Origin: Candidatus Atabeyarchaeum deiterrae
GTDB lineage: Archaea > Asgardarchaeota > Atabeyarchaeia > Atabeyarchaeales > Atabeyarchaeaceae
NCBI GenBank assembly: GCA_037310415.1
Contig: CP147780.1
Location: 584,701 to 648,700, forward strand
Length of the DNA: 64,000 bases
Direction: 5' to 3'
Both the position numbers and the translations under genes were made by a program. The notes beneath the pieces were generated by a model. That model made no database searches. It worked only from the letters and a program-made list of their open reading frames with translations, and was not told the DNA's origin. Below, in pieces: positions 11,698-60,550 of the stretch (positions are counted from its first letter, which is position 1; each line of letters opens with the position of its first letter).

Positions 11698-11727
11698 TTG
11701 AGTCGTCCATCCGTCTATGACGCGTAG

Positions 11728-19314: not shown

Positions 19315-19318
19315 TAGT

Positions 19319-20329: not shown

Positions 20330-20332
20330 TTT

Positions 20333-22187: not shown

Positions 22188-22191
22188 GTCT

Positions 22192-23364
22192 TCAACTCAC
22201 TTCGAACTTCTTAAACATCTCTGCTATACTCGAAATTTGTTTATATAGCTCGAGAATCAGTTCCTTCTTCTTTGGCTCCTCGCCTGCAACAATGCTCCTT
22301 TCCTCTTCTCGTGACATGCTCTTGAGGCCTTCTATACACTTGTTCATGTGTTCGAACAGTCTCGAAGCATAAGCTGGCATAGACAGACTGAGCTCTTCTT
22401 TTGCGGCGGAGAAACCTTCCTCCTTCAGTACTTTGACAATCTCTTTGTTATCAAACATCTTCTTCAGATCTCGAACGTCTTGAGCACGCACGATCTCCCC
22501 GTTCCCAACCCAATCACAGAAGTCTTTGTCTTCAAGCTCGTGTTTCTTCATTCCATCTATGATCTTCTTGCTCTCGTATTCAACGAAATATGAAAACTTC
22601 GTGAATGGATTGTCTCTGCCTGTGTAGCTTGGCAAAAACTGTTCGGTCATGAGTTTGTATGCTTTTATCCATCTTCTGATGTCGACCAACGAAAGTTTCG
22701 TCGTATCCATAAGTCGCCGTTCGCTGTATCCCCTCTTGTCCCATAGTATGTACAGCATTCTGGCTCTCTCGTAGGCTTGCCAGTCATTCTGTGCGCGTAA
22801 ATGTGCTATGAGGCGGATGAAGTTTCTTGCGCGCTCATCGGTGCCCTCTGGAAGGATCCTTGCCTTGATCTTCGTGTATTCCTCTTTCCTTGGGTACTTG
22901 TCTCTTAATTCTCTGTAGATAATCACTCTTGTGTTGCCATCTATGCACAGATATTTCTCACCTTTCTTCATGACCCAGATCATTTCGACGGCGCCACCGC
23001 CAGCCTCGATGCTGCTCTTCAATCTGTTGTATGCGTCCACATTCTGCTGTTTCAAGAAATAGACCAGGGTTTTTTGATTTGTTGTCTGCCCCGCGCTAAG
23101 ATAGTTGTCTCTTGCGTATCCAATTCTGGGATTCTCTTCATCCAATTCGATCTCGTCTATGGGAATATCATCGATTTCGATCTCTTCTGGCACGCCATCG
23201 ATTGGAACTTCCATTTTGTACCGATCCTTTTCCTCCTTTCTCTCACTCGGCGCCAGAAGTACACTTTTGTCATCAATGTCTTCGGACAACTTGTCACACC
23301 TCTTCTCTACATTTACCCCCTCATGAAGTCGTGCGGTGAACCCCCAGTGAGTCTGGCAAGTCAA
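22192..23364 (-). CDS. ParB/Srx-fold protein, DGQHR-like (DGNTR variant), acidic N-terminus
   Basis: IELDEENPR box and YLCIDGNTRVIIY. The start may be the internal Met (MEVPIDG). First gene of the operon. Confidence 0.65.
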   Translation of the reverse strand: MTCQTHWGFTARLHEGVNVEKRCDKLSEDIDDKSVLLAPSERKEEKDRYKMEVPIDGVPEEIEIDDIPIDEIELDEENPRIGYARDNYLSAGQTTNQKTLVYFLKQQNVDAYNRLKSSIEAGGGAVEMIWVMKKGEKYLCIDGNTRVIIYRELRDKYPRKEEYTKIKARILPEGTDERARNFIRLIAHLRAQNDWQAYERARMLYILWDKRGYSERRLMDTTKLSLVDIRRWIKAYKLMTEQFLPSYTGRDNPFTKFSYFVEYESKKIIDGMKKHELEDKDFCDWVGNGEIVRAQDVRDLKKMFDNKEIVKVLKEEGFSAAKEELSLSMPAYASRLFEHMNKCIEGLKSMSREEERSIVAGEEPKKKELILELYKQISSIAEMFKKFEVS

Positions 23365-24535: not shown

Positions 24536-25870
24536 ATGTTTTGTGACCCTGAACTCAAGATCAGCATCCCATATGAATACGTAAAAGATCCAATTTATGG
24601 CTATATTAGAGTTTATGAGCACGAGCACAAGATCATCGATACCGAGTCGTTCCAGAGACTTAGACGTATAAAACAGCTAGCCGCGGCGCACTATGTATAT
24701 CCAGGTGCGACACACACACGCTTCTCTCACAGCTTGGGCGTAATGCACCTTTCAGGGCTCTTCGTCAAGCAGTTGCTTGAGTCCTGCAAGAATGAGATTC
24801 CAGATGATACTTTTTTGCGCTATTTCTTCTTAATGAGGCTATGGGGTCTCACCCATGATTTGGGACATGGACCCTACTCTCATACTTTTGACAAAGCGGT
24901 GCTTGAACATATGGGGATAAATCATGAATACATGTCCTCGAAGATTGTCGTGGATGACAATATTATTGCAGAAACCATAGAAAAAGATCTTAGCGACTAC
25001 GACATAAGACCTAAAACACTGTCAGAATACTTGGGTAAGACCCGAGAAGAATGGCCAAAGGGAGAGAAACTAGGTAACACACAACACAATGAATCATCCT
25101 TCTATTACGTACTGAAAGGATCTTATAGCACTGACATTATTGATTACTTGCTCAGAGACAATCTCTATACTGGCGCAGGGTATGGAAACTTCGACTGGCA
25201 ACGATTGATCTTATCTTCATGTCTACACGGCGATGAGGTTGCTCTAGACGTTAGAGCTCGTGATACGTTGGACGCTCTCTTGCTTTCGAGATTATTCTCT
25301 TTCAACACAATCTATTACCATAGATGGTCGAGAGCCGCGGATCACGTAATGAGAGTTTTCTTATCAAAAGCAAACAAGAAAATCGATCTGGCTGACTATG
25401 CCAACGATGTCGAGGAATATAAGAAGCTGGACGAGGAAAGCATTCTCCAAATGAGAGAACTCACTGACATCCCCGAGCGAAAAATGTTGCTTGACAGGGA
25501 AATACCCTTCAGAGAGATTGACAGACGCAAGATCCAGCTCTCCTCTGACATAGCGATTCTGGATGAAGATAACTTGAACTCTAAGCTCTCCGAGACATTG
25601 GAAAGCAGAATCCCTAGTGAAGCGTACTTTGTGGATACACCGAATTTGCCTTTGAACCCAATGAGGGATGAGGACGTCTGTATTGTTGACCACTCATCAT
25701 CGCCAACCGCGGTATGGCACGAGCCTGTCAGGAAAACATCTTGGGGAGAAGTACCTTACTCCGTTTGGATAGTACGACTATACCTAGACAAAAAATATGA
25801 AAAGAATGAGGAAGATGTAAAAAGGGCGTTTCAGGATGCTATCACAGGTAAGAAGGGATCACACTTCTGA
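24536..25870 (+). CDS. HD-domain phosphohydrolase, SAMHD1/dNTPase-like (COG1078-type), island copy
   Basis: HTRFSHSLGVMHL and THDLGHGPYSH motifs. Paralogue of 50396-51679. Confidence 0.8.
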   Translation: MFCDPELKISIPYEYVKDPIYGYIRVYEHEHKIIDTESFQRLRRIKQLAAAHYVYPGATHTRFSHSLGVMHLSGLFVKQLLESCKNEIPDDTFLRYFFLMRLWGLTHDLGHGPYSHTFDKAVLEHMGINHEYMSSKIVVDDNIIAETIEKDLSDYDIRPKTLSEYLGKTREEWPKGEKLGNTQHNESSFYYVLKGSYSTDIIDYLLRDNLYTGAGYGNFDWQRLILSSCLHGDEVALDVRARDTLDALLLSRLFSFNTIYYHRWSRAADHVMRVFLSKANKKIDLADYANDVEEYKKLDEESILQMRELTDIPERKMLLDREIPFREIDRRKIQLSSDIAILDEDNLNSKLSETLESRIPSEAYFVDTPNLPLNPMRDEDVCIVDHSSSPTAVWHEPVRKTSWGEVPYSVWIVRLYLDKKYEKNEEDVKRAFQDAITGKKGSHF

Positions 25871-27352: not shown

Positions 27353-27572
27353 GGACCGAATTGCAGAAGGCGATACCGAAAGAAATGATAGAGCCTTTAA
27401 GAGCCAAGTATGAGAGCGAATGGCAGGAAGAGTGGGAGAAGGCAGTTCTAAGGATTATGCTGTTCACTTAATTCCTGTAGAATATGCACTAAATTACGCC
27501 CTACGGGAATACAACACAGACACACCTCGCAGGAAGGCCAAAAAAGAAGGGTCAGACAGCCAAAAAAGAGGA

Positions 27573-29075
27573 CTACGCAGTTGCTGACTGGGACATGTGC
27601 TTATACCTGTTCGCTTTCCTCGCAGCGTCAAGGGTCTTAGGGTCGCACCGCTTCATCTCACCCTCAGGAAACACAGACAACAAATCCCAGGCGAGATCAA
27701 GAGTCTGATCAATGCTACGATCCACATATTCACCTTGAGTGATAAACTTCCGCTCAAACGTATCAGCAAACTTCAAATACGCCTTATCCCGATCACTCAA
27801 AGCCTCCTCACCAATCACAGCAACTAAATCCCTGAAATCCATACCCTCACTAAAAGCATAATACAACTGATCCGACACTTCCCTATGATCCTCACGCGTC
27901 AACCTTTCTCCAGATTTTGTCACACCGATCCCCTCCTTCATCAACCGACTCAAAGACGGACGCGGGTCGATCGGGGGGTATATACCCTTGTGATGGAGAG
28001 CCTCAGAAATAATGAGCTGTCCCTCAGTAATATACCCAGTAAGATCTGGAACGGGGTGTGTGATATCAGAATGCGGCATCGTCAAGACTGGCATTTGTGT
28101 TATTGTGCCTTTTCTGCCTATTATGCGTCCTGCTCTTTCGTATATGCTGGCGAGGTCTGTGTAGAGGTATCCTGGGTATCCTCTTCTTCCTGGGACTTCT
28201 TCTCTTGCTGCGCTGATTTCTCGTAGGGCTTCTGCGTAGTTTGTCATGTCTGTTAGGATGGCTAGGACGTGTAGGTTTTGTGTGTATGCTAGGTATTCTG
28301 CTGTTGTTAGGGCGCATCGGGGTGTTATGATGCGTTCTATTGCTGGGTCGTCTGCGAGGTTTAGGAATAGGACTGTGCGTTCGAGTGCGCCTGTTCGTTC
28401 GAAGTCTTTGCGGAAGTATTGTGCTTCTTCTGCTGTTATGCCCATGGCTGCGAATACTACGGCGAATTGTTCTTCTTTGCCGAGTACTTTTGCTTGGCGT
28501 GCTATTTGTGCGGCTATGCGGTTGTGTGGTAGTCCTGCTCCGCTGAAGAGTGGTAGTTTTTGTCCGCGTACGAGTGTGTTCATTCCGTCTATGGTGCTGA
28601 TTCCTGTTTGGATGAATTCTCGGGGGTATGCTCGTGCTTCGGGGTTTATTGGGCTGCCGTTTATGTCCCACATGTCTTCGGGTATGATTGGTGGTCCGTT
28701 GTCTATGGGTTCGCCTGAGCCGTCTAGGGTTCTGCCGAGTATGTCGGTTGTTACTGGGATTTTTAGTGGTTCGCCTGTGAATTGTGCTTGTGTGTTTTTG
28801 GTGTCGAGTCCTGTTGTGCCTTCGAAGACTTGGACGATGGCTTTGGTTTTGGTGATTTCTAGGACTGTGCCTCTTCTTTTTTCTCCGTCTGGTGTGGTTA
28901 TGTTGACGAGTTCGTTGTATCCTACGCCTTGGACGTTTTGGATGATGATTAGTGGTCCTGTTACGTCTGAGATGGTTTTGTAGGTTCTTTTGGCGTAGAG
29001 TGCTGCTGCGGCGATGTGGGCGGCTGTGGCTGTTTTGGTGGCGCTTTCTTGTTTTTGTTGTTTGGTTGTTGCCAT
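27573..29075 (-). CDS. atpB: A-type (archaeal V-type) ATP synthase subunit B
   Basis: Colinear AtpB sequence ([73 protein letters not shown]). Has a 28-aa T/K/Q/A-rich N-terminal extension. Confidence 0.95.
27600..27716 (-). repeat. atpB 3'-end copy A (functional gene end; putative att-like site)
   Basis: Homologous to copies B, C and D. The shared core of about 40 nt encodes [13 protein letters not shown]. Confidence 0.7.
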
Positions 29076-29132
29076 GGGTGTGTTCTCCGTGTTGTTGTTT
29101 GAGGTGGTTGGGGTTTGGTTGATTGTGTGTGT

Positions 29133-29144
29133 CTTATAATTTTT
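29133..29144 (-). promoter_or_regulatory. Candidate TATA box upstream of atpB
   Basis: CTTATAATTTTT is one of very few A-containing patches kept in an otherwise A/C-purged spacer. It lies 58-69 nt upstream of the atpB ATG. Confidence 0.3.
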
Positions 29145-29494
29145 GTGGTTTTGGTATCTGGTGTTTTGGGTTGGTTAGGGGAATGGGAGGGTCTGTAATC
29201 TTGGGTTTGGTGAGATTGGAGTTGAATGGTTTGGAGGGGGAATTGGACTTGAATGGTGGGGGTGTCGGGTTTTTTTGTGTGATTGTCTTTCTGTGTCTGT
29301 CGATGCTTTTTGTTGTAGGTTAGGTTGATCTTGGGTAGGAGGTGGGTAAGTATTTCTGGATGGTGAGGTTTGATGGAGGATTGGTGAGTACTTCCTTGTT
29401 GGCTGGTTTTTTCTTCTGTTTGGTTGGTGTGACGTGGAGCTCTCGATGAGTTTTGGTTAGGTGTAGTGTGTTTTGTTCTGGTTGAATTTGGAGA

Positions 29495-30850
29495 ATGTTT
29501 ATATTTCAGTGCGTATTTTCTTTTTCGCGAATTGGCATAAGAGGAGATTTCACTTGTGCCGTTCGTTTTTCCGATTTGAAAAGGGTTGATTTTGGATCAG
29601 AGTGGGTGGCTTTGCCGAAGCGTAGTCAGGGGCGCAGGGTTAACGTTTGGGTTGCGTTGGCAGTTGTGTTGTTGGCTGTTAACATCGGTCAATTTGCGTT
29701 TTTTGTGTGGTTGCGGCCGAGTGTTCCGGTGGAGGATTCACCCATCCAAGTGGGGGACGTTACTGGTGTGAATAGGGCGAGTTTCCTTGGGAAGACGGTT
29801 ACGTTGGAAGGATACTTCGTTGGTGTGTTGGGGGGGAAATCGTTTCTCACTGCTGGTTTGGATGATTTTAGGCAGAATAGGATTCTTCCGTTGACGAGGT
29901 TTGTTACGATTGGGGGTGACCTTCCGCTGGATCTTTTGAATCAGACGGGTAGCCGCATCTTGCTGAAGGGGGTAGTTGGGATTGATGATTTGAATGCTAA
30001 TTTGACGCGTATTTCGTATGTGTCGCATAAGGTCGTTGAACCAAGTGCGCAGAATTATGCGCTGTGGAATTGGGATAAGCAGATTAGTATTCCTACGCCT
30101 CCGTTTCTGCAGCCGCATAAGTATGCGGTGTTGATGAGTGGGGGGTGGGATGCGGAGCACGCGTTTATGCGTTACTGGAATGATTTGAAATTCATGTTTG
30201 CTATTCTGACTGGGTATGGTTACAGTGGAAGTAATATTTTCGTTCTCTACAAGGATGGCGTTCCTGAGGATGCAGGGATATTTGTGAACGCTTCTTGCAC
30301 GTATGCGAATGTCGCTGCTGCTTTTTCGACTCTGCAGGCGAAGATGACGGATCTTGATGACTTGTTCATCTATACGACGAATCATGGGAACCCGGCGCTC
30401 TGCTTATGGAATCATGACGTACTGATTCCGTCTGACTTGGCGTCGATGTTGCAAGGTATCACGTGCCATGTCATGATCATCTTGATGCAGCAATGTTACG
30501 GGGGGGCGTTCGTACAAGATTTGAGTGGTTCGAACCGGGTGATTATGACCGCGGCGAATTCGAGTCAGTACTCATGGGCTTGCGACAAGGAAGGACCTTG
30601 GGATGAGTTTACGTACCATTTCATGGATGCGATGCGAGGGATGACCTTGATCGCAGACCCTGTGTTTGCAGACTACAATAGTGATGGGAAGGTATCCATG
30701 GTCGAGGCTTTCAATTATGCGCAGAGCATGGATAGTTGCGCTGAAATCCCCCAGTTTGATGATAACGGAGATGGCGTCAGTCATTCGGGATGGATGACCG
30801 TCGGCGGGGATGGCTATCCTGGTGGGCTCGGAGCTACGACGTTTCTGTAG
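29495..30850 (+). CDS. Membrane-anchored peptidase C13 (legumain-like, clan CD) family protein
   Basis: TM helix VWVALAVVLLAVNIGQFAFFVWL. Catalytic His-Gly FIYTTNHG and Cys IILMQQCYGG in clan-CD order. Ca-binding-like ADYNSDGKVSMVEAFNYA. Start uncertain. Confidence 0.7.
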   Translation: MFIFQCVFSFSRIGIRGDFTCAVRFSDLKRVDFGSEWVALPKRSQGRRVNVWVALAVVLLAVNIGQFAFFVWLRPSVPVEDSPIQVGDVTGVNRASFLGKTVTLEGYFVGVLGGKSFLTAGLDDFRQNRILPLTRFVTIGGDLPLDLLNQTGSRILLKGVVGIDDLNANLTRISYVSHKVVEPSAQNYALWNWDKQISIPTPPFLQPHKYAVLMSGGWDAEHAFMRYWNDLKFMFAILTGYGYSGSNIFVLYKDGVPEDAGIFVNASCTYANVAAAFSTLQAKMTDLDDLFIYTTNHGNPALCLWNHDVLIPSDLASMLQGITCHVMIILMQQCYGGAFVQDLSGSNRVIMTAANSSQYSWACDKEGPWDEFTYHFMDAMRGMTLIADPVFADYNSDGKVSMVEAFNYAQSMDSCAEIPQFDDNGDGVSHSGWMTVGGDGYPGGLGATTFL

Positions 30851-30992
30851 ATGATTGTTGGGACCATTTCTCCATATTTCTTCTTTTGACAACGACGAGA
30901 GTTCCGTGATGTCGGCCCGAAAAGTTGCCTTGCTCCTATTCTCAGAGAAAACGCGCAGAGTTGTCAGCAGGGTTTCGGGGAAGGGATTGCTT

Positions 30993-33900
30993 CTAGGTGT
31001 AGAGAAGTGCGCCGACTGTTATATGGTTGACTAGTTTGTTGGTTTCGTTCTCGTTGAATGGTAGGGGTGTTATTCCCCGGAGATTGAGGAATGCAAGTGT
31101 TCTCTGTAGTTTTGTGGCGTCTTTTTTCCATGGTGTGATTATGATTAGTCCCTTTATTTGTTCCTTTTGAAGTTCTTGTCTTATTGTTCCTATTTTTGCT
31201 GTTGTGGTTGATGGGTTCATTGTGTTGTTCGTCCAGACCGTGATCACGTATTGGCTTTGGTTATTGTTTGTTGTCGTTGTTAGTAGTTCCATGTTTTGGT
31301 CTATCCACATCGTGTTGATTCCTTTGTTTCGGAGGTCTTTGTGTATTGTGGTGGTTATGTATTCTTGTAGTATGTTTCGGTTTTCGTGGTCTGTGACTTG
31401 GTAGTATATTCTTGTTGTCGCTTGGGGGTTTTGGTAGTCTGGTGCTCTGACATCCCCGATGAGGTCCTTGGCAATTAGGGGTTCTATGTGTTTGATTAGT
31501 TGTTCCTTTGTTTTGATGTTCAGTCTTCTTTGTAGTATGGTTTCATCGATTATTTCATGTTGGTGTTTGAAGGCTTGTTTCACATCATGCCATAGTTGTG
31601 TCTCTTCGGGTGTGAGTGACCGTTGGCTCAAATTAGTTCTCGTAACGTGTTGGTGTTCTGGTTGCTCCTCACGTAGTGTTGGTGGTGGTGTGTTCATGGG
31701 TGGATTGGATGGTGTGGGTGGCTGGTAAGCATTTGGGGTATGGGATGTCTGTTGCTGGTTGTAGGTGAATGTGGAGCGTGGTGAGTTGTTGGAGAGGCTT
31801 TCTGTTTCTAATTCATGTTTGTCGTTTTGAAGCTGTTTTGTTTGTTGTTTCGAGTCTTTCATTGCTTCTATTGCTTTGATGTAGGTTCTTAGTGCTTCTT
31901 TATAGTCGCCGGCTTGGTATGCTTCTTCTGCTCTGCTTTTCAGTATGCTTGTTTCTGGGTCATGTGCTGTTATTGATTGGTTGTGCTCCGCTGGATTGGG
32001 TTTCGCTGTTTCTGCGTCGTAGATTATCGGGTAGTTTACCATGTTGTTTGTTATGATGTCTCTGTTGCTCACTTTTGGTGGGTTTATTTCGCATGTTCTA
32101 ATCCTTATGGCTTTGGAGTGTTTGGGTGTGGTTATTATGGCTTCCATCTTGGGCATTGCTTTGAGGTAGTTGGTTTGTTCTTCATTTAGGTTTAACCATT
32201 TTGCTGCTTTTTCGCCATCTACTGTTGTTCTTAGGAATATCTTGGTTGCAGAGTTTGCTAGTATGTTTTGACTTATGTTTGGTCTTTGTGTTGAGATTAT
32301 TACTCCTTGTCCTGTCGCTCTGAGTAGTAGTACCATTTGCTCGGTTATGCTTGTTTCAGCTGTTGTTCTTTTGGTTAGTATTTCTGGTACTATGTCGAGG
32401 GCGTCATCGATTATGAGTATGTGTTTCAAGTTGTCTTGTATTCCCCGTTGCTGGGCGGCTGTGGCTACGTACTTGGTGATGATGCTTGATATGAGACGCA
32501 AGTCTTCTCCTGTGCCATTTGTCTTGATTTCGCTCAGATCTATTATCGCTCTTCGTTTGATCAAGTCATTGAAGTTCACGTTGCTCTCGTCTTGATTGAA
32601 TACTTCGCTCAGTGGAGTTCTTGTAAAGGAGTATAGACGGTTGAGTAGAGCTTGGATTGTTGAGTTTATTTGAGGTATCGAGGCTGAACCGCTTCTCTTT
32701 GCGTAGCTTTCGAGCCACTCATTGAATCCACTCCAGTTTCTTGTGGTTTTGTCTTCGGATGATCTTTGCCTGATCGGTTGGTCCCTTTCTTCGCCATGTT
32801 CCTGGTCTCTCTTGTCTGGAGACGTCTTTTGTGTTATGTAGGTTACTAGAACCTCATAGAAAACCCGTTCCATTTGAGCGCTTAGCTCTCTGTTCTGATC
32901 TGTGAAAAGCGTTGAGAATGTCTCTTTGAGTATCGTGAAGATCTTCTTTGCATGAACATCAGGTTTTTCCATTTCTGGGTCAAACAGGCTGATCTTCAGT
33001 GCAGCGGTTTTCGACGCTGGCTTAAGATAGACAACGTTGTCCACTGATTTCACGAGGGGTTTGTACTCGCCTTTCATCTCTATTAATGTCCACGCGATAT
33101 CATAGCGCGACAGGTTCTCAAGTATTTTCATGATCAGCCTTGTCTTGCCGAATCCTGTTTCACCAAAAATGACAGTATGTAGCTTGAGATCCTGCAGTTT
33201 GATTCTCATTGGGCAAATCTCGTTTTCACCGTCGAGTACTGTGCCGATTATTAACTCCCCGTCTTCAAGCTCCTCCATTGAGGGAACATGAAAGGCTGGT
33301 ATTGATGTCTCGGGGATGCCTGCAACATGTTGCTCTGGTAGAAGGATCAGTGTTGCTGCTACCCTTGAAGAAGCATTCAACGTTGTGAACCCTATCGTCT
33401 GCCTGAATAGAAGATTAGTTAGATGTTTCGCAACATGTTTTCCTTTTAGCTTTTCGCATTCAATCCCAACTCCAGGGTTTGAGTAAATTGCCTCAATACA
33501 AGCGTCACCTTTCTCTTGCATCGACTTTGTTTCCTCAGGGGTCTCGCCTCGGTAGGCAACATATGCCGAGATCTTCCAGTAACCAGAGAGCTGTGCATTT
33601 CTATCTTCGCTAGCCTCTCTTTTCTTCTCATCGAGTTCAAGTAGTAACCTCATGTTGGGTTCCGTTTTCGCTTTTTCAATGAGTCTTGATTCTGATGCTA
33701 TTGATGGGGGTTTTGTTGCCTCCAAGTGAATTGTCATTGAAGCGGTGAAGCGTTCTCTTGTAAATGTTGAGATGAATTGCTCAACTTGGTTCTTTGGCAT
33801 CCCAGTAGTTGAGTCTGGGTTGGCCCTCCCCTTCAGGGCACTTACGGCAACATAACGCACATCTGTCCCTTGAATCCTTTCTATCTTGAGGAGCCTCCCG

Positions 33901-34927: not shown

Positions 34928-36724
34928 CTATGCCGTGGCAGCTATGCTTGATGTTGACTTGCTTAGTAGAGATTCAAACTGCTGATCCATTCTTTTCTCA
35001 ACTTCGTCAAAGACTTCTTTGATTTTTGATTGCTCAACTATTTTGAGTCGAGCTATTTCGTCGTAGGTGCCTAGCTTAAGCACCTCACGAATTGGTGCAC
35101 CTAGATTAACCGCCCTTTTCATGTTCTCGTAGAATTTGATTACTGCTCTCAGTAACCTGTAGGACTTTGTTGGATCACAATATGAGTCGACTGGATGCAG
35201 GGCTGATTGCATCAAGTAGTCTTCTCTGATCATTCGGGCCGCCTCCAAGATCACCTTCTCAGTTTCAGGCAACGCGTCAGGCCCCACAAGTTGAACGATT
35301 TCCTTGAGTTCCTCTTCCCTTTGCAGCAAGGTCATTGCCGTCTCCCTTATTGAAGCCCATTCTGGGCTGACTTTGGCTTCGAACCATTCTCTTAGGTTAT
35401 CCTGGTATAGGCTGTAGCTTTGAAGCCAGTTTATCGCAGGGAAGTGCCTTCGGGAGGCTAGGTCCTTGTCAAGCGCCCAGAAGACCTTAACAATCCTGAG
35501 TGTGTTCACCGTGACTGGTTCTGAGAAGTCCCCGCCTGGTGGACTAACTGCTCCAGTTACACTAATGCTACCAATGCGCTCCTTGGGCCCTAGAATCACA
35601 ACTCTTCCAGCCCTCTCATAGAACTCGGACAGCCTGCTCGCGAGGTATGCGGGATACCCCTCTTCGCCTGGCATCTCTTCAAGACGACCTGATATCTCCC
35701 TTAGAGCTTCGGCCCACCTTGAAGTGCTGTCTGCCATTAGAGCAACATCGTAACCCATGTCACGGAAGTACTCAGCCATGGTGATTCCAGTGTAAATGCT
35801 TGCCTCTCTCGCTGCCACCGGCATGTTACTGGTATTTGCTATCAGCACCGTGCGCGCCATCAGAGGCTCGCCAGATCTCGGGTCAGTCAGCTTGGGGAAC
35901 TCCTCTAGAACTTCTGTCATTTCGTTTCCCCTTTCCCCGCACCCGACATAGATTATTATCTTAGCATCGGCCCATTTGGCCAATTGGTGCAGCATCACGG
36001 TTTTTCCTGTCCCGAATCCTCCAGGAATGGCCGCAGTTCCACCTTTTGCAGTCGGGAAGAATGTATCTATGATCCTTTGACCAGTAACCAATGGTGTATC
36101 GGTACTCAACTTAAACTTAATGGGACGTGCTCTTCGAACAGGCCAAGTTTGAAGGAGCGCTATTTTATTCTCTCCACCGTCAGCACTCTTAACAGTGGCT
36201 ATTGTGTCAACCAGTTTGTATTTTCCCTCATCCGCAACTTCAACTAACTCGCCTGACATACCGTAGGGAACAATTATCCTGTGTGTTACAAGTTTCGTTT
36301 CTGGAATTTCACCAACTGGTGTTCCAGGCTCCACCTTTTCACTTTTTCTCAACAATGGAATGAAATGCCACTCAGTGTCGCGGGGCAGTGCCTCCGTTAC
36401 GACGCCTCTCCTTATGAAGTCGCCAACAGCTTCCTTGATTCTAGGCAGCGGCCGCTGAATGCCATCAAAGATCTGACCGATCAGACCCGGACCCAATTCA
36501 ACTGACAATGGTCGCCCTGTAGCGATAACAGCTTCCCCCGGTTTGATCCCAGCGGTCTCCTCGTAAACCTGAATGGTGCAAACATCTCCAGATACCTTGT
36601 TCACTTCTCCGATTAATCCTTCGTCCCCTACTCTGCAGACCTCGTACATCTTAACACCGCGGAGACCTTCGGCATCAACGACTGGTCCTGAGACCCTGAT
36701 TATTTTACCATTGATTTCTGACAC
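34928..36724 (-). CDS. atpA: A-type (archaeal V-type) ATP synthase subunit A
   Basis: [15 protein letters not shown], Walker [11 protein letters not shown], and [32 protein letters not shown]. 598 aa, so no intein. Confidence 0.95.
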
Positions 36725-38908: not shown

Positions 38909-38956
38909 AGCCCCGTGAGGGTTCGCACTTCATTTTCTCTGCTCGAAAATCAAGCA

Positions 38957-41215: not shown

Positions 41216-41223
41216 AATTCAAA

Positions 41224-53935: not shown

Positions 53936-54079
53936 ACCAACAGTACGTTCTGACCCATTAAGAGAAACTATTAGCCAACGCTCTTTTAAAATACTTTCTG
54001 AAAGGAATTGCTTTTTAATAGATTTGAGCAATTGTTATGGGCTATAATCTCGCTCCATATAGAACTGCAGGAACCTTTT

Positions 54080-55618
54080 ATGGGGAACCAATTGAGTTTG
54101 AATCAGCGACGGCAAGACGCTGTACGAGTTTTGTTGAAGGCAGGTGTTCAGTTGAGCCCTGATGCTCTTAATTATCTGGATCTGCAACCGGATCCCGTTC
54201 ATCTTGCCTCTAAAACGCTGGCAGAGCTAGATAGAAGAAAAACCAAGCCGCTAATCATTACTAGAAACATGCTTGAAGAGATTGTGCCCATTCCCTCGCC
54301 AAAATACCCGAAGATTATTGATTTCAATGACCCGATCAGTCCAGTCAACGACAAGAGCATTGATGTAACCCCATTCGTGGAAGTAATGTCCTCGCTCTAT
54401 GAAGAATCATCGGCCCAAGGGAAGCTGGAAAACTTCCTAGCTTATTTTCGAAACCGTTACGAGAAAATGGTGAAACTGTTCAAAGCTAGGAAAGATGCCC
54501 TCGATGCAATTAGCATCAATGAAGTGGCGAAAGTGGGCGAAGGTAAAGAAGCAAGAGTCATCGGGCTTGTAACGTCCAAAAGAGAGACAGATAGAGGAGT
54601 AACGATTCTGGAACTCGAAGATCCAACTGGAGTTATCTCTGTGCTGATATCGACTATCAATGATAAGTTATACAACAAGGCTTCTAGAGTACTACTTGAT
54701 CAAGTCGTCTGTGTTGAGGGAGCTGCAAGGGATCAGAAAACGATATCGGCGAAAGACTTGAACTGGGCAGACGTTCCTTACGATCGAAGACCGAATAAGG
54801 CAAAGGAACCGGTTTACGCAGTGCTCATGTCAGACATACACTATGGTAGTACAAAATTCCTCAGAGACAGATTTGAGGAATTCATGGATTGGTTAAAGGG
54901 AGAAGGACCAACAGATCAAGCTTCAAGAATAGCGAGAAACATAAGATATTTGATCATAGCAGGTGACTTGGTCGACGGAATCGGCGTATATCCCAAACAA
55001 GAAGAAGAACTTGAAGTAAAGGATATATACGAGCAATATAGGCAACTTGCCGAATACATCAAGAGGATTCCGCAGAGTATTGAAATTATAGCGATCCCAG
55101 GAAACCATGATGCAACGCGCCTAGCGCTTCCACAACCACCAGTTCCAGACAGTTATATGAAGGCGATAACAGGATCCTGCACTAACTTTCGTATGCTGGG
55201 AAACCCTGCTTTTGTCAAGATCCACGGAGTAGAGATTCTCGTCTACCATGGGAGGATCATCGACAACATTCTCTCCACTCTTCCTGAGATCAGCAGCAGA
55301 ACTGTGGGTCAAGCGCTTCAGGAACTTGTACGGTGCAGGCATTTGGCTCCAACTTGGGACCCGAACAATCCAATAATCCCTTTGGACGAGGACTTGCTTG
55401 TGTTGGAGAGAATACCCGATATCTTTCATACGGGACATATCCACGTAAACGCGGTGTCTCAATACAGGGGAGTACTTACTGTTAACTCGGGAACGTTTCA
55501 ATCACAGACCTCATACCAAAGAGCGATGGGTGTGAAACCAACACCAGGCATAGTTGAGATTGTGAACCTTATGACATTAAAAGCCTCTCAGATTCAGTTT
55601 GGTGTCGGGGCAGAATAA
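54080..55618 (+). CDS. DNA polymerase II (PolD) small subunit DP1
   Basis: OB-fold region followed by Mre11-like phosphoesterase motifs VLMSDIHYGS, GDLVDG, IPGNHD and GHIH. ATG at 54080 preferred over the ORF-track start. Confidence 0.85.
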   Translation: MGNQLSLNQRRQDAVRVLLKAGVQLSPDALNYLDLQPDPVHLASKTLAELDRRKTKPLIITRNMLEEIVPIPSPKYPKIIDFNDPISPVNDKSIDVTPFVEVMSSLYEESSAQGKLENFLAYFRNRYEKMVKLFKARKDALDAISINEVAKVGEGKEARVIGLVTSKRETDRGVTILELEDPTGVISVLISTINDKLYNKASRVLLDQVVCVEGAARDQKTISAKDLNWADVPYDRRPNKAKEPVYAVLMSDIHYGSTKFLRDRFEEFMDWLKGEGPTDQASRIARNIRYLIIAGDLVDGIGVYPKQEEELEVKDIYEQYRQLAEYIKRIPQSIEIIAIPGNHDATRLALPQPPVPDSYMKAITGSCTNFRMLGNPAFVKIHGVEILVYHGRIIDNILSTLPEISSRTVGQALQELVRCRHLAPTWDPNNPIIPLDEDLLVLERIPDIFHTGHIHVNAVSQYRGVLTVNSGTFQSQTSYQRAMGVKPTPGIVEIVNLMTLKASQIQFGVGAE

Positions 55619-55632: not shown

Positions 55633-56886
55633 TCATAAGGTGTACTGGCGGGACAGTTTGGGGATGTAGCTTGAAACATTCTTTATCTTCTCATCTTCCT
55701 CGAGAACTTCCTTGACCTGATTCTGCGGCACCAAGAGCTTTATCTTCTTGGTCCTCCCATACCGACCCTTGCTTTCCACTTTGGCGTTAATTATCCCTAG
55801 CATATCCAGCTCATTTACCAGATCGCCAACACGCCTCTGTGTAAGCATGTCTAGTCCCAATTTTCCACAGAGCTCACTGTAAACCTCGAAGACACTTCCC
55901 GTAACTACCTCTTCCTCACCCTGTTTCTCCAACAAGTACGTGGTGTAGAGGACTAACTTTGATTGCAGCGGCAGAGTCCTCAAGGTCTCCGTTACTGTGT
56001 CGTACTCTATGCGTCCTTGAGCGGAGCGAACGTGTTTCTCGCTAACTTTGCGCTCGCCAGCTCGTTCACACAGGTCTCCAGCAACCCTCAGGAGATCTAA
56101 CGCTCTGCGAGCATCTCCATGTTCGCGGGCCGCCAAGGCAGCACAGAGATTAATAACCGAATCATCAACAACTTGGTCACGAAAACCAATGGCGGCTCGT
56201 TGCTTCAGAATATCCTGGAGTTCAGTGGCAGTATAAGGCGGAAAGACAACCTCCTCTTCACTAAGGCTGCTGACTACGCGCGGATCGAGATAGTCTTTGA
56301 ACCTCAAGTCATTAGATATTCCGACCAAACTAACCTTACCTTGTTTCAACGAGGTGTTAATCCTAGTCAGCTCATACAGCACATCGTCTCCATCCTTCTT
56401 GACAAGCATGTCGATCTCGTCGAGGACGATTATAATAAGTTGTCTCTTGTCGCTAATCTCTTCCAAGAAGCGTCGGTAGACCTCATCTGTAGGCAAACCT
56501 GTGAAGGGGACATCTAGGCCGATCTCTTTGCATAGATTAGCAAGAACCCGGTAGTTGGTATCCACAACTCTGCAATTCACATAGGCTGCACTTAAAGCCA
56601 AACCATCAGGCTCGGAGACCTTCGTCTTGGCGGATAGATGCTTCAGGACGTACTTCGCAGCTGCTGTCTTACCTGTGCCAGTCTTTCCGTAAATAAATAC
56701 ATTGGAAGGAACGGATCCTTTGAGTGCGGAACTCAAGATCATTCCCAAGCGAGCAATATGCTCCTCACGGTGAGGGAGCTCATCAGGAACATAAGTAGCC
56801 CTTAGCACATCTCTATTCTTAAAAATAGTTGGGGATCTAAGAAAATTGTCGAAGATATCATCCAATGATTCTTTATCGCTCGCCAT
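55633..56886 (-). CDS. cdc6: Orc1/Cdc6 replication initiator
   Basis: Walker A IYGKTGTGKTAAAK, Walker B IIVLDEID, sensor motifs, and a C-terminal winged helix. Confidence 0.9.
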   Translation of the reverse strand: MASDKESLDDIFDNFLRSPTIFKNRDVLRATYVPDELPHREEHIARLGMILSSALKGSVPSNVFIYGKTGTGKTAAAKYVLKHLSAKTKVSEPDGLALSAAYVNCRVVDTNYRVLANLCKEIGLDVPFTGLPTDEVYRRFLEEISDKRQLIIIVLDEIDMLVKKDGDDVLYELTRINTSLKQGKVSLVGISNDLRFKDYLDPRVVSSLSEEEVVFPPYTATELQDILKQRAAIGFRDQVVDDSVINLCAALAAREHGDARRALDLLRVAGDLCERAGERKVSEKHVRSAQGRIEYDTVTETLRTLPLQSKLVLYTTYLLEKQGEEEVVTGSVFEVYSELCGKLGLDMLTQRRVGDLVNELDMLGIINAKVESKGRYGRTKKIKLLVPQNQVKEVLEEDEKIKNVSSYIPKLSRQYTL

Positions 56887-57565: not shown

Positions 57566-57821
57566 AAGAAACTCACCGGGAGCACCAGAACCTCAGTAAT
57601 CATTCACAGTTAGTGAATTCACAGGTATTAAAGGCTAACTACAATACTCACAAACTAAGCACTCAAGAACATAACTGAAAAAGTATATCCAAAAATCAAC
57701 CGCAACAAGCGGATCTTGGGCAAGGGGGAAAAAGTCGAACACTATAAGTGGTGCGCAGAGGGATCCACTCACAACTGTGAAAAAATGGAATTGGAATGTG
57801 AAAGGATAATGAGGAGTCGAC

Positions 57822-57845
57822 TTCTCCAGTGGAAATAGGGGGGTT
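57822..57845 (+). promoter_or_regulatory. Origin recognition box (ORB) 1
   Basis: TTCTCCAGTGGAAATAGGGGGGT matches the archaeal ORB core TCCAGTGGAAA followed by a G string. Confidence 0.65.
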
Positions 57846-58020
57846 AAGGAAAGCCATTTCCCGCCAAAAAGACTGAAAACAGCCCAGAATAAACAAACAG
57901 GACGACTCTTAAAGGGAGCCCAGTATTGATTTCACAAAAAGAAATTCACAGATTCACAATGGCAGCTGACACATCGCTTACTAGGTGGCACCCCATCATT
58001 TCCAATAGAACTGACCAGTT

Positions 58021-58118
58021 TAACTAGTTCTTGACTGACTATATGTTCAAAAGATTAGTTAAAATTATAGCGCAATCTTGATAAGAATAGATATATGCTA
58101 AACAAATCACTTTAAACT
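58021..58118. other. AT-rich candidate duplex unwinding element
   Basis: TTGACTGACTATATGTTCAAAAGATTAGTTAAAATTATAG...ATAAGAATAGATATATGCTAAACAAATCACTTTAAAC, lying between the two ORB elements. Confidence 0.4.
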
Positions 58119-58172
58119 GGGCTCTCTTGCGCACTGGATATCAAACCTAACTCACCCGACACCCTTGCGAGG

Positions 58173-58199
58173 TTCCAGTGGAAACGACAGGGTAGGGGT
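58173..58199 (+). promoter_or_regulatory. Origin recognition box (ORB) 2
   Basis: TTCCAGTGGAAACGACAGGGTAGGGGT has the same core and G string as ORB 1, in the same orientation. Confidence 0.65.
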
Positions 58200-58472
58200 C
58201 CCCATACTACCCGGATTGTTCTGACCTTATATGGACAAGTTCATCACTCAATACAGGAGACCACAATTCTTCTCCTAGATGCGACAGTCCCGGATCGCCG
58301 ACTACTGTCCTACTACACACTCGCTACCTGCCGTTTATTGTCTTCTTATGTAACATTGATACTAGACGTTACCTAAGACAATAGGACTGCTTCTCGACCA
58401 TTTGATCTGGCAGTACGCGAGTCTTCCGAGACGAAAAGCAGATAAGCCTTATCATCTGTTACATAAGAGGAG

Positions 58473-58871: not shown

Positions 58872-58974
58872 TGTCAACCATGAGACGTTTTGAGAAAGCT
58901 TTTCTATCTGTTCTGTTATCCACTTAAATGAATCTGGATTTGCTCAAGAATTGTGGTGTCTCTACATGAGCATT

Positions 58975-59736
58975 ATGAAGATTGTCGCCCTGTGTAACCA
59001 GAAGGGTGGTGTCGGTAAGACGACTAGCGCTGTTAATCTCAGCGTTGCACTCGGCATGCTTGGGAAAAAGGTCTTGTTGCTTGATCTGGATCCTCAGGCG
59101 AACTCCTCTGTTTCATTTTTCGGTTTTGATGTGTTCAACGCTTCACTCTCAATGTACAATGTCTTAGTTGACGAGAAAGTTGGCGTCCGCGACGTCATCA
59201 GGCGGACGGAGGAGGGGATTGATCTTTTGCCATCAAACCTGAATCTTGCTGGGGCTGAGCTTGAGTTGACTGGTTCCATAGCGGGTGAGACGGCTCTTAA
59301 GGACAAGCTTGCTGCGGTGCAAAATGATTACGACTATACATTTATTGATTGTCCACCTGCTTTGAATATCTTTACCATTAACGCTTTGGTTGCGGCCACT
59401 GATGTTTTTGTCTGTATTCAACCATCGTTTCTGCCAATGGTGGGAACTGAGCAGCTAACTAGAACCATCAAGATTGTCAAAGACAGACTCAACAAGCAGC
59501 TTAGGATATCTGGTGTCATTCTGACCATGTGCGATGAGCGAAAGATTATCTCTCGAGAGTCTATCAACGAAATCAATCGCTACTTCAGTGACGTTGTATT
59601 TGAGGCACGGATACGAATTGACGTGAAACTTGAAGAGGCCCCCTCATACACAAAATCCATATTCAAATATGCGCCAGATTCACGTGGCGCTGAGGACTAC
59701 ATGAATCTGGCCAAGGAAGTGATTAGACGTGTCTAA
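58975..59736 (+). CDS. parA: ParA/Soj family partition ATPase
   Basis: Deviant Walker A KIVALCNQKGGVGKTT, then LLLDLDPQ and FIDCPP. Confidence 0.85.
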   Translation: MKIVALCNQKGGVGKTTSAVNLSVALGMLGKKVLLLDLDPQANSSVSFFGFDVFNASLSMYNVLVDEKVGVRDVIRRTEEGIDLLPSNLNLAGAELELTGSIAGETALKDKLAAVQNDYDYTFIDCPPALNIFTINALVAATDVFVCIQPSFLPMVGTEQLTRTIKIVKDRLNKQLRISGVILTMCDERKIISRESINEINRYFSDVVFEARIRIDVKLEEAPSYTKSIFKYAPDSRGAEDYMNLAKEVIRRV

Positions 59737-60550
59737 TGAGAGTAAGCGAAGGCGGCTCGGCGCTACAGTTCTCGGCGAATTAGGTAAGCTGGCGAAGAGT
59801 TATGGAGTTCAAAAGATACCTCTCAACGAGATCGACTTGGAGGATCCGAAGTTTAGAACGCGGTACGACCTAGGCGAGAAACAGATTGTTGAGTTGGCAG
59901 ATTCCATTAGAAGTGAGGGTTTGATCAACCCTATTGTTGTGCGACGCAGGGCTGATTCAAAGTATCAACTGATATCTGGGTTCAGAAGGGTCGAAGCTGT
60001 CCGAAAACTTGGGGAGGACGCGGTTGATGCTATTGTGGTCAATGTTGATGATGATAGAGCCCTTAGAATTGCTGTCTCTGAGAACTTGAAGAGAAAGAGT
60101 CTCACACCTCTTGAGATTGGGTTGATGTGCGATAGATTGGTTAAAGAAGGTAGGTCCTATGATGAAGTCGGGCGGATGATGGGTCTTTCAGCCAAGCAAA
60201 TCCAACGTTATCTTCGTACATTGAAGTTGAATGAGGAAGTCAGGAAATCATTGAACGATGGAGCAATCAACTTTTTCACGGCTCTCGAAATAGGAAAAGT
60301 GGACGGCGCCGTCCAGTCTGCTTTATTAAAGAGGGTCTTGAAGGAGAAGCTGTCCACAAGGGACGTCTCCCAACTGGTGCAAGAAATGAGGAGAAGCGAG
60401 AAGAGAAAGAATATCATCGAGGATCTGCCTAACGTGAAGTTCAAGAAAGGTCAGATCATAATCGACTTGACTGGTGTTGAGTTGGTCAAGACTCTCAAAG
60501 CCCTTCTGAGGGAAGCTGAGAAGGGCACGATCCAGAATGCCATTAATTAG
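59729..60550 (+). CDS. parB: ParB/Spo0J-like partition protein
   Basis: IPLNEIDLEDPKFR, GLINPIVVRR and YQLISGFRRVEAV (GxRR box), then HTH MGLSAKQIQRYL. GTG start overlaps the parA stop. Confidence 0.8.
   Translation: MSNESKRRRLGATVLGELGKLAKSYGVQKIPLNEIDLEDPKFRTRYDLGEKQIVELADSIRSEGLINPIVVRRRADSKYQLISGFRRVEAVRKLGEDAVDAIVVNVDDDRALRIAVSENLKRKSLTPLEIGLMCDRLVKEGRSYDEVGRMMGLSAKQIQRYLRTLKLNEEVRKSLNDGAINFFTALEIGKVDGAVQSALLKRVLKEKLSTRDVSQLVQEMRRSEKRKNIIEDLPNVKFKKGQIIIDLTGVELVKTLKALLREAEKGTIQNAIN

Follow-up and report, generated by a model that had tools for sequence, protein, structure and literature searches.

Bipolar, strand-specific transition bias anchored at a fixed site within the atpB gene of several Asgard archaea

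As a rule, strand-compositional skew is a faint signature of replication spread over the whole chromosome. At atpB of Candidatus Atabeyarchaeum deiterrae, in contrast, it is concentrated in a few kb around one point of an essential gene, where it reaches complete saturation, which raises the question of what process could mark the two DNA strands so locally and with so sharp a boundary. We studied this locus in a window (the whole stretch of DNA analysed, 64,000 nt of contig CP147780.1) for which an initial annotation had read the gene codon by codon. The features of the locus are the following:

27573..29075, minus strand: atpB, subunit B of the A/V-type ATP synthase, 500 codons, host of the switch (Pfam, translation and codon table)
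28086..29075, minus strand: saturated arm, atpB codons 1–330; synonymous sites of the sense strand all A/C, plus strand G/T-rich
28083..28088, minus strand: switch point GTC/TTG, codons 330/331 (maximum-likelihood change point and codon alignments)
27490..28085, minus strand: arm of opposite polarity, codons 331–500 plus 3' UTR/terminator; sense strand G/T-rich (78% of third positions)
29076..29165, minus strand: atpB 5' UTR and conserved promoter block (alignment of four lineages and sequence)
29166..32800, no strand assigned: decaying upstream arm, plus strand G/T-rich, keto fraction falling from 0.84 to 0.58 (third-position profiles)

The product of atpB carries the Pfam domains ATP-synt_ab_N, ATP-synt_ab and ATP-synt_VA_C. 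Its codon table bears out what had been counted by reading, namely a switch sharp to a single codon at 28085/28086, with no codon ending in G or T other than ATG and TGG over about 330 codons on one side, and 38 of about 170 codons ending in A or C on the other. Third positions of codons 1–330 comprise 182 A, 141 C, 7 G and no T, far from ordinary frequencies of G/T endings for 28086–29075, and all seven G-ending codons are ATG or TGG; those of codons 331–500 comprise 65 G, 67 T, 23 C and 15 A (A/C-ending: exactly 38/170). Likewise, the 25 leucine codons of the left part are all CTA or CTC, while those of the right part are mainly TTG. Maximum likelihood places the change point after codon 330, with only codons 329–330 lying within 2 lnL units, and the change-point model gains 190 lnL units over a model without one. 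At the window baseline of 0.48, the probability of finding no keto-ending codon among 323 informative ones is ~10^-92, and the longest run of A/C-ending codons reaches 323 in atpB versus 4–35 in 15 other genes of the window. The switch site itself corresponds to a highly conserved AtpB motif, kept in all archaeal AtpB examined.

The interpretation first put forward for this pattern was that of saturating strand-specific transitions filtered by purifying selection, with C>T and A>G on the plus strand to the right of 28086 and on the opposite strand to its left, and it accords well with our results: the protein is colinear and conserved, codon positions 1 and 2 are only mildly shifted, and the non-coding 5' UTR is nearly pure A/C as well, except for its TATA box and its Shine–Dalgarno motif. 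The promoter block consists of a TATA-like AAATTATAAG at ~29143–29134, then CACACACAATCAACCAAACC, with GGAG at 29088–29085. Two 18-mer matches to the promoter motif occur in viral contigs.

The initial annotation had cautioned that the boundary might be an assembly join. This concern was not borne out and a chimera is ruled out, as the DNA across the switch has 100% identity with the window in two Logan assemblies built from separate sequencing runs (over 21.4 kb and 9.5 kb), and the same switch recurs in nine lineages belonging to the Atabeyarchaeia, the Freyarchaeia/Jordarchaeia and the Wukongarchaeota (data from NCBI, JGI, ENA and Logan). Long-read validation is also provided in the source paper, at the scope of overall genome topology. 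In codon alignments, the switch of the relatives falls at the equivalent of codons 336–342, and at ~codon 300 in Wukongarchaeota, the shift between lineages being 20–100 nt. It is not seen in more than 140 other archaeal atpB genes, and a 400-nt keto-difference scan across 1.29 Mb of outgroup and control loci returned no switch of comparable size. The lineages bearing the switch include Atabeyarchaeia and Freyarchaeia, groups with reported replication-type GC skew (PMC11291895), and no description of such a site-anchored extreme skew switch was found in the literature searched.

How far the asymmetry extends, and to what it is attached, can be seen in the flanks. The upstream arm spans a non-coding stretch, a C13-peptidase-like gene (29495–30850, plus strand) and the 3' third of a HerA-like gene (30993–34790, minus strand), and the third-position skew of the window flanks is independent of gene orientation, the opposite-strand C13-like gene being skewed likewise. 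In the relative L141, the upstream genes UbiA (minus), EndA (plus), eIF2B (plus) and HTH-PRT (minus) have one common absolute-strand skew, which is matched by the downstream genes Endo_dU (minus), RNaseIII (minus) and DUF2067 (minus), i.e., seven unrelated genes in both orientations over arms of 3.7 kb and 2.5 kb. The skew is a property of the DNA strand, not of the mRNAs. It decays over 1–4 kb upstream and 0.5–2.5 kb downstream: the arm facing oriC is saturated for ~1.4 kb and decays over a further 1.5–3 kb, while the far arm stands at ~80% for 0.5–2.5 kb. In L004, the profile is a sawtooth, in which the keto percentage declines from 50 to 0 along the terminal 1.5 kb of the gene upstream, stays there to codon ~330 and then jumps to 80–100; in Atabeyarchaeia-1, saturation is limited to the immediate vicinity of the switch. 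Such profiles reflect a one-strand transition bias whose strength depends on the distance from a fixed start. Moreover, the C13-like gene is a lineage-specific insert whose skew is highest beside atpB and lower at its far end than in the older HerA 3' end beyond; this skew was acquired in situ. Altogether, the atpB locus is a site-anchored, bipolar domain of strand-specific transition bias, in which, on either side of one fixed point in atpB, G/T has taken over every selection-free position of the strand whose 5'→3' direction leads outwards.

Sharp local asymmetries are familiar from transcription start sites, where GC skew at CpG-island R-loops and transcription-associated mutagenesis produce a sharp edge, a decay over 1–2 kb and a G/T excess on the non-template strand; the sign reverses where starts are bidirectional, and R-loops may make the skew self-reinforcing. 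The atpB pattern has the sharp edge, the kb-scale decay and the sign flip in common with them, but its stronger arm is on the wrong strand for atpB transcription, passes the promoter and crosses genes of both orientations. Divergent transcription, through mutagenesis or persistent R-loops, could in principle produce both arms if sense mRNA exposed the coding strand (3' arm) and antisense RNA initiated near the switch exposed the plus strand (5' arm), G-rich RNA then promoting further R-loops and making the skew self-reinforcing. The 3' arm does bear the classical non-template-strand signature and stops at the terminator, the 5' arm of L003 stops at the atpB promoter, a TATA-like TAATATA on the plus strand (28028–28034) could set an antisense start ~25–30 nt downstream, near the switch, and the in situ transcription of the ATP synthase genes ranks with the highest of any gene set (source paper). 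We nevertheless consider this account quite improbable. The G/T excess is on the non-template strand in the 3' arm only, that of the 5' arm being on the opposite strand and continuing 1.5–3.5 kb past the atpB promoter in the window, L004 and L005; the arms of L141 cross its seven genes regardless of orientation; the candidate TATA sits in invariant GYITEGQ codons, which makes its conservation uninformative; and atpA, which serves as an internal control, is unskewed:

34928..36724, minus strand: atpA, unskewed internal control (Pfam and third-position profiles)

Comparisons between lineages indicate whether the skew is a relic or a live process. Among Atabeyarchaeia lineages, 28–35% of the four-fold sites differ, and 277 of the 283 differences are A<->C; in control genes, both transitions and transversions are saturated. 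Between classes, the choice of A or C at four-fold sites is fully randomised, with no strong family-specific preference, and lineages with saturated synonymous divergence still have only 0–3 G/T-ending codons per ~325, a paucity that requires the bias to be continuous. The process is still active in every lineage, and at least three Asgard classes, Atabeyarchaeia, Freyarchaeia and Wukongarchaeota, maintain it independently of one another. For transversions, the left arm has diverged less (0.27–0.31) than control genes have (0.40), and thus gives no sign of a generally raised mutation rate.

These observations also bear on the alternative initially offered, a mosaic gene formed by homologous recombination with a donor of extreme skew, here taken as a single import of the 5' kilobase. 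The protein trees are mildly discordant, the left part grouping Frey with Atabey and the right part Frey with Jordarchaeales, and the switch lies in the most conserved protein segment, a plausible crossover anchor; the states shared by Frey and Atabey are, however, mostly ancestral (identical to the Odin consensus), and the flanking non-homologous genes are skewed in a gradient. Given the randomised A/C choice and a bias that at least three classes have separately retained while their synonymous sites diverged to saturation, we reject a single import as very improbable. No viral contig or mobile element with the 5' part of atpB was found.

To our knowledge, a bias exceeding 200:1 tops any natural mutational skew. 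A further possibility is that composition itself is under selection, either for an mRNA with as little G/U as possible in its 5' kilobase (free of structure, or escaping a nuclease or guide) or for a DNA element requiring strand-segregated A/C and G/T. The 0/323 saturation is indeed sharper than any known mutational equilibrium, the left-arm transversion divergence is below that of control genes, and the position of the switch is conserved across classes. Yet opposite-strand genes and non-coding DNA share the absolute-strand skew, which decays smoothly with distance, the recent insert has gained a graded skew of its own, codon choice between A and C is without strong family-specific preference, and amino-acid composition is shifted in the same direction; we therefore give selection on composition little credence. 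Regarding the last point, the bias leaks into the protein: the keto fraction of positions 1 and 2 is 0.43–0.45 in the left arm versus 0.50 ± 0.015 in 64 outgroups, amino-acid composition being dragged the same way in a mild shift, with few replacements to polarise at strongly conserved columns. This convergent enrichment in T/K/Q/N/P could mislead phylogenies using AtpB, a common marker, while hyper-skewed regions break stationary codon and nucleotide models and would be misread by gene finders based on codon usage and by detectors of horizontal transfer.

The polarity of the switch leads to the relationship with replication, for which the window contains its own reference:

57600..58450, no strand assigned: probable chromosomal oriC, polarity reference (ORB cores, keto shift)
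55633..56886, minus strand: Orc1/Cdc6 gene, adjoining oriC (Pfam)
54008..55618: PolD DP1 (Pfam)
58951..60550: ParA and ParB (Pfam)

The probable oriC holds two exact TCCAGTGGAAA ORB cores (57825–57835 and 58174–58184), each followed by a G-string, and displays a modest keto shift (0.43 to 0.57) of the same sign as the atpB switch but far weaker. The origin-type polarity noted in the initial annotation stands in this respect, its sign being that of the window oriC, whereas the switch is in all likelihood not the chromosomal origin, which probably lies at 57.6–58.45 kb. Near atpB, no ORB repeat was detected within 2 mismatches between 20.8 and 29.9 kb, exact TCCAGTGGAAA matches occurring only at 57825 and 58174; the Orc1/Cdc6 gene is ~27.5 kb from the switch, and the latter is inside a coding sequence, not intergenic. 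A regression on four-fold sites reveals no replichore-scale skew change across atpB (GC skew: −0.036 ± 0.029; keto: −0.010 ± 0.011), where the skew is local and roughly hundredfold stronger than at oriC. As in the skew switch of a bidirectional origin, G/T richness falls, whatever the gene orientation, on the strand that leads 5'→3' outwards from the point; unlike it, the arms decay to baseline within 1–4 kb instead of being replichore-wide, the skew is saturated (0% versus ~44/56% at four-fold sites around oriC), and the point is within coding sequence, with neither an ORB motif nor an adjacent orc1 gene. That the switch is the chromosomal origin, or else an artefact of assembly or sequencing, is barely credible: it has the sign change of an origin, but the canonical oriC is 30 kb away, no long-range skew step occurs at atpB, the gene is located at ~21% and ~44% from the record start in two complete chromosomes (positions that are not informative alone), and the feature recurs in identical independent assemblies and across lineages sequenced from four data sources. 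The locus would mark a long-lived local mutation hotspot, 30 kb off the probable replication origin. The distance is 55 kb on the L089 contig and 71 kb in Freyarchaeum deiterrae, oriC being upstream of atpB in all three cases; atpB transcription points away from oriC, the saturated arm being on the oriC side of the switch.

To account for this hotspot, we tentatively favour, without holding it to be quite probable, recurrent DNA synthesis or single-strand exposure from a fixed origin-proximal site, following either fork stalling or breakage with restart, or repair of an endonuclease break, and filtered by selection. From the fixed point in atpB, additional one-sided DNA synthesis and/or exposure of single strands would start again and again, either because replication forks travelling from the nearby oriC in the direction of atpB transcription stall or break at the switch, or because an endonuclease cuts there. 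After the lesion, the 5'-ended strand would be resected toward oriC and refilled, while restart synthesis would proceed on the other side; should this synthesis tend towards G.T-type misincorporation in the strand being made, the newly made strand of each arm would gain G/T. The gradient would follow from variable tract lengths and the codon-sharp edge from the fixed start, non-synonymous changes in AtpB would be purged by purifying selection, and one event per roughly 10^2–10^4 generations would suffice for saturation of neutral sites. Judged from composition, the switch would be the site of the putative stall, break or nick. The model is weakened by the missing sign of a raised mutation rate in the left arm, by a bias beyond 200:1 and by switch positions that vary by 20–100 nt between lineages. 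Single-strand deamination of resected 3' tails, if dominant, would yield the polarity opposite to that observed, so the model hinges on the assumed polymerase error bias, which archaeal EndoMS/NucS repair could even reverse.

A parallel is found in atpA. The Atabeyarchaeia-1 ortholog contains a LAGLIDADG intein, and its extein flanks have a bipolar skew as in atpB, while the intein body is unskewed, as are intein-free atpA alleles. Skewed flanks around an unskewed intein are what repair synthesis predicts, with one new strand per flank and both strands new in the insert; since the flanks could not be saturated by one round of homing, many successive events must be assumed. As a link to break sites, the parallel comes from one strong case, that of Atabeyarchaeia-1. 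Same-site atpA inteins of other lineages include three devoid of flank skew, for which reason we reject such skew as a general property of inteins, and one with a weak version. Within atpB, neither an intein nor a homing-endonuclease gene was found in ~180 loci, a limited sampling in which two apparent long matches turned out to be the atpA paralog, and no nuclease gene is conserved beside it. With kataegis, resection-tract clusters and mutagenic break-repair synthesis, the atpB locus shares a mutated strand that switches at a fixed point and kb-long tracts; the likeness to break repair extends to the association with a bona fide homing-endonuclease site in Atabeyarchaeia-1 atpA. It differs from kataegis in a polarity opposite to that of 3'-tail deamination after 5'→3' resection, and in being a very long-kept evolutionary steady state in an intact essential gene rather than a one-off cluster.

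Orc1-independent secondary initiation is another reading, which we regard as unlikely: R-loop- or D-loop-primed synthesis at the switch would displace the parental strands over 1–4 kb on each side, where they would remain single-stranded for long, as in the mitochondrial D-loop, and be deaminated (C>T, A>G). The polarity identical to that of the window oriC is in line with it, as are a bidirectional pattern, independent of gene orientation and conserved in position, and a gradient shaped like the mitochondrial one, which depends on the time spent single-stranded. The latter is illustrated by the heavy-strand deamination gradient of vertebrate mitochondria under strand-displacement/D-loop replication (PMC3269015), which resembles atpB in that C>T and A>G build up on a single strand to a degree set by the distance from a fixed start, most strongly at third positions and under the filter of selection. 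The atpB pattern departs from it by being bipolar about one point, far more extreme and limited to a few kb on a chromosome of 2.8 Mb, and by the joint saturation of both transitions. Furthermore, both the ORB motif and an AT-rich unwinding element are absent from the switch, no chromosome-scale skew change occurs across atpB, and the unskewed intein exactly between two skewed atpA arms is left unexplained. In hydrolytic deamination, C reacts much faster than A, yet the saturation of C>T and that of A>G fall in parallel along the gradient; misincorporation fits this better than hydrolytic deamination, in a test that does not discriminate cleanly between them. Deamination driven by thermophily is weakened by the wetland-soil source of the Atabeyarchaeia and Freyarchaeia genomes.

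More generally, atpB might contain a conserved cis-acting replication feature, 30–70 kb downstream of oriC in several Asgard classes, acting as a programmed fork pause/restart site or as an Orc1-independent initiation point, a possibility that we rate as rather doubtful. If true, its strand asymmetry would have rewritten every neutral site for kilobases, intein homing sites would be marked by the same process, and hyper-skew switches would be the footprint of DNA-synthesis restart in uncultured archaea. Similarly, if recurrent fork stalling and restart or break repair is the cause, sequence by itself would map a replication or repair event in organisms not yet grown, whose lineages sit beside the eukaryotic stem; Asgard fork dynamics, the error spectra of repair polymerases and intein homing would then be testable from existing metagenomes and metatranscriptomes.

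Finally, we considered whether the skewed atpB could be an orphan second copy beside an operon copy. This idea is unsupported and was dropped, since the unskewed sister cluster of atpB belongs to different organisms, and many Asgard lineages have atpB separated from atpA.

27573..29075, minus strand, atpB (Pfam ATP-synt_ab_N, ATP-synt_ab, ATP-synt_VA_C)

The third codon positions of atpB follow two opposite rules on either side of a single boundary. From the ATG to codon 330 (29075..28086), the codon table gives A182, C141, G7 and T0, all seven G-ending codons being ATG or TGG, and from codon 331 to the stop it gives G65, T67, C23 and A15. This recount confirms the codon counts of the initial annotation, G/T-ending codons not reaching an ordinary frequency in 28086-29075. 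Synonymous first positions obey the same rule, with Leu encoded by CTA or CTC in 25/25 cases in the left part and chiefly by TTG in the right part. The maximum-likelihood change point falls after codon 330 (lnL gain of 190), only codons 329-330 lying within 2 lnL units. Given the window baseline, the probability of 0/323 keto-ending (G/T) codons in the left arm is ~10^-92, and among 15 other genes of the window such a run has a maximum length of 35 codons, reached in the HerA-like gene adjoining the atpB region.

The switch is neither an artefact nor confined to the genome of the window. Across it, two Logan assemblies, each from a different run, match the window at 100% identity (over 21.4 kb and 9.5 kb), and it is also found in four close relatives with an AtpB identity of 85–89% (L003, L004, L005 and the Atabeyarchaeia-1 locus L167), in three Freyarchaeia/Jordarchaeia loci (~75%; L088, L089, L170) and in one Wukongarchaeota locus (67%; L141). 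It is absent from all 80 of the outgroup atpB genes taken from genomes, and the only metagenome-derived loci to do so among 80 are L087 (the L005 contig again), L088, L089 and L141. A scan for switches as large as that of atpB returned no case across 1.29 Mb of outgroup DNA; in the skewed lineages, seven of nine loci pass its threshold (L141 and L170 fall below), with at most one origin-type switch per locus, every time in atpB. The position corresponds to window codons 330–342 in seven of the eight lineages codon-aligned across the switch, the Wukongarchaeota switch occurring ~30 codons earlier than the others, and lies in all cases inside the most conserved stretch of AtpB; the profiles of Atabeyarchaeia-1 and Freyarchaeum deiterrae flip near the same codon. 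Atabeyarchaeia and Freyarchaeia are reported to have cumulative GC skew of the replication type, and Loki-, Heimdall- and Odinarchaeia are not (PMC11291895), which hints at unusually strand-asymmetric DNA synthesis in the lineages with the switch.

Between Atabeyarchaeia lineages, the four-fold sites of control genes (atpA, RadA and the 5' part of the HerA-like gene) are saturated, with transversion differences of ~0.40 and transition differences of 0.24–0.31, versus 0.27–0.31 and 0.00–0.04 in the left part of atpB, where transversion divergence is not raised relative to these controls. A<->C changes make up 277/283 of the left-arm four-fold differences, G/T-ending exceptions number 0, 2, 1 and 3 per ~325 codons, and the choice between A and C is fully randomised between classes (observed 0.31–0.59; 0.39–0.55 expected under independence). 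Therefore, each lineage removes G and T independently and continuously, the implied out/in rate ratio being ~200 in Atabeyarchaeia and about 10–25 in Freyarchaeia. This pressure also leaks into the protein: at positions 1+2 of the left arm, the keto fraction is 0.43–0.45 vs. 0.50 ± 0.015 in 64 outgroups, and the N-terminal extensions of AtpB have many T, K, Q, A and N residues.

It is the DNA strand that carries the skew. From 28086 to ~32.8 kb, the plus strand of the window is G/T-rich, a zone that spans genes of both strands:

29495-30850, plus strand, C13-peptidase-like gene, within the G/T-rich zone
30993-34790, minus strand, HerA-like gene, its 3' third within the G/T-rich zone

In L141, the same absolute-strand skew runs through seven unrelated housekeeping genes of both orientations, over ~3.7 kb upstream and 2.5 kb downstream. 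This indifference to gene orientation, together with the skew of non-coding DNA, argues against selection on mRNA or translation, while codon- or tRNA-based explanations are excluded because the atpB 5' UTR is itself nearly pure A/C, the exceptions being a conserved TATA-like box, the initiator block and GGAG. Simple transcription-associated mutagenesis was also rejected, since it fits the 3' arm but not the 5' arm. Further 5' of the promoter, in an A/C-rich spacer (29166-29300, minus strand), repeated CCATTC(AA) motifs (caCCATTCAAgtCCAATTcc, aaCCATTCAActCCAATCtc, tCCCATTCcc) are the main sites where T survives, and may on this basis be protein-binding sites.

The upstream arm has a sawtooth profile. 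In L004, the third-position keto content of the sense strand declines from ~50% to 0 across the final 1.5 kb of the preceding gene, stays at 0 up to atpB codon ~330, then leaps to 80–100%; in Atabeyarchaeia-1 and F. deiterrae, saturation is complete or strongest near the switch. Both transitions fall off in parallel along the gradient. The C13-peptidase-like gene, which separates the HerA-like gene from atpB in the window lineage only (it is absent from L004 and Atabeyarchaeia-1), is most skewed beside atpB, and at its far end the skew is weaker than in the older HerA 3' end lying beyond. This indicates that the skew is acquired in place, in a distance-dependent manner, and suggests that the gene was inserted after the adjoining HerA 3' end had become skewed. 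The mosaic gene that the initial annotation had proposed as an alternative is not borne out, a single import being ruled out by the independent maintenance of the bias in each lineage and by the graded skew of non-homologous flanks. In Freyarchaeia, the mild discordance between the trees of the left and right parts of AtpB is probably due for the most part to retained ancestral states, and a search of viral contigs found none with the 5' part of atpB.

As for the replication initiation point first read into the switch, the window has a textbook origin neighbourhood elsewhere:

54008-55618, plus strand, PolD DP1
55633-56886, minus strand, Orc1/Cdc6
57600-58450, putative oriC spacer between the Orc1/Cdc6-DP1 pair and the ParA/ParB pair, with two exact TCCAGTGGAAA
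58951-59736, ParA
59729-60550, ParB

RadA, a RadB-like gene, XPD and Topo IA complete this neighbourhood. Judging from its sequence, the spacer looks like a canonical archaeal oriC: TCCAGTGGAAA, which we take to be the ORB core, occurs at 57825-57835 and 58174-58184, each copy followed by a G-string, and cumulative GC skew reaches a local minimum at 57.6–58.45 kb, where keto content shifts from ~0.43 to 0.57, the sign matching that at atpB and the shift being much weaker. Since, in addition, a motif search of the window found no ORB-like motif near atpB and no long-range skew change crosses the gene, the switch is not the chromosomal origin. Bidirectional replication had been inferred in the source paper, the available text of which gives no origin position. 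The window oriC lies 30 kb upstream of atpB, and Orc1 lies 55 kb upstream on the L089 contig and 71 kb upstream in F. deiterrae (1.637 Mb vs. 1.565 Mb); in these three cases (3/3), transcription of atpB leads away from oriC, the saturated arm being the one on the side of oriC. The sign of the oriC-facing arm is opposite to the general replichore sign, and the far arm has the replichore sign, exaggerated. L141 and the window have an EndA/HTH-PRT neighbourhood in common. Within the window, it belongs to a domain (37980-45550) with an A/C-rich plus strand (four-fold keto 0.35–0.43) and genes in both orientations (RadA, HTH-PRT, EndA, GcvT, F420 ligase, Topo IA), the sign of which is consistent with a leftward replichore from oriC, though stronger than in the remainder of that replichore.

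A parallel exists in another gene:

L167 2500-5916 (Atabeyarchaeia-1, CP147779.1), atpA with a LAGLIDADG intein at 3223-4842

This 540-aa intein is inserted at the P-loop site (GFGTGK/TV), between a left extein flank of ~75 codons nearly all A/C-ending and a right one of ~130 codons mainly G/T-ending, i.e., the same bipolar third-position pattern as in atpB. The intein body is unskewed, as are the intein-free atpA alleles (window, L004), so that the atpB footprint recurs, in the lineages concerned, at a site where cutting and repair are known to take place. Inteins at the same site elsewhere show no flank skew (L032, L173, L174) or, in L107, only a weak version.

The G/T-rich strand is the one running 5'->3' away from the switch. 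Four processes would yield this polarity: synthesis diverging from a point, displacing the parental strand to deamination; divergent transcription, exposing the non-template strand; G.T-type misincorporation in strands newly made away from the point, by refilling after 5'->3' resection or by restart/BIR-like synthesis; and stalling of a fork, behind which the leading-strand template would be exposed. The opposite sign would be expected if the 3' tails remaining after resection were deaminated. The intein case, with its skewed flanks and unskewed insert, matches misincorporation, for which one strand would be new in each flank and both in the insert. This match, the geometry of the arms and the sawtooth lead us to favour, tentatively, recurrent stalling or breakage and restart synthesis at a fixed atpB site, the break itself being what we infer. 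A fork from oriC would fail there, with resection towards oriC, refilling, then restart beyond the failure point; resection and refilling would produce the long saturated arm that faces oriC, restart the shorter arm beyond, and variable tract length the sawtooth. A two-ended break by an endonuclease would be expected to leave an identical picture; no intein allele of atpB was found in ~180 loci. Such a stall or break model depends on an assumed polymerase error bias, and the bias demanded is extremely strong. Ranked second, an Orc1-independent initiation or D-loop site at the switch seems unlikely to us; behind it, R-loops from divergent transcription and compositional selection both appear quite improbable.

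Strand-asymmetric mutation, origin-type switches, mitochondrial gradients and break-associated clusters are known ingredients. A kilobase-scale, saturated, bipolar and gene-internal domain conserved across classes appears to be new, the literature searched offering no description of a local saturated skew switch in atpB, Asgard genomes or intein flanks.

The window encodes two large HerA/DUF87-domain ATPase paralogs (30993-34790, minus strand, 1265 aa; 12469-15663, plus strand, 1064 aa), in both of which long N- and C-terminal stretches lack annotation. The former separates atpA from atpB in the window, in L004 and in Atabeyarchaeia-1, and all that L005 retains of it is a gene of 457 aa, homologous to the C-terminal part. 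The latter belongs, with a cation-efflux gene and a DUF6448 gene, to a second block (10800-15660) with a moderately G/T-rich plus strand (four-fold keto 0.63–0.74), independent of orientation; its edges are fairly abrupt on both sides, not sawtooth, and the segment may have arisen by transfer or rearrangement. Genes of a defence-like or variable kind also lie near atpB:

6982-8621, AbiEi/AbiEii toxin-antitoxin pair
18055-23364, unannotated gene cluster around an SNF2-family helicase
24536-25870 and 50396-51679, two HD-domain (HD_assoc_2) proteins

The flanks of atpB vary by lineage, those of L167 and L005 containing ParE, DpnII/MTase, SLFN-AlbA and ParB-N genes. In L006, an ENA contig of 2.5 kb, an unskewed AtpB-like ORF (231-2345, 704 aa) has an internal duplication of ~240 residues of the nucleotide-binding domain, possibly an assembly artefact. 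Finally, a 107-nt tRNA gene (38960-39066, minus strand; Rfam match of 53 bits), missed by ARAGORN, probably contains an intron, in agreement with the introns reported in 92–95% of the tRNA genes of these genomes (PMC11291895).
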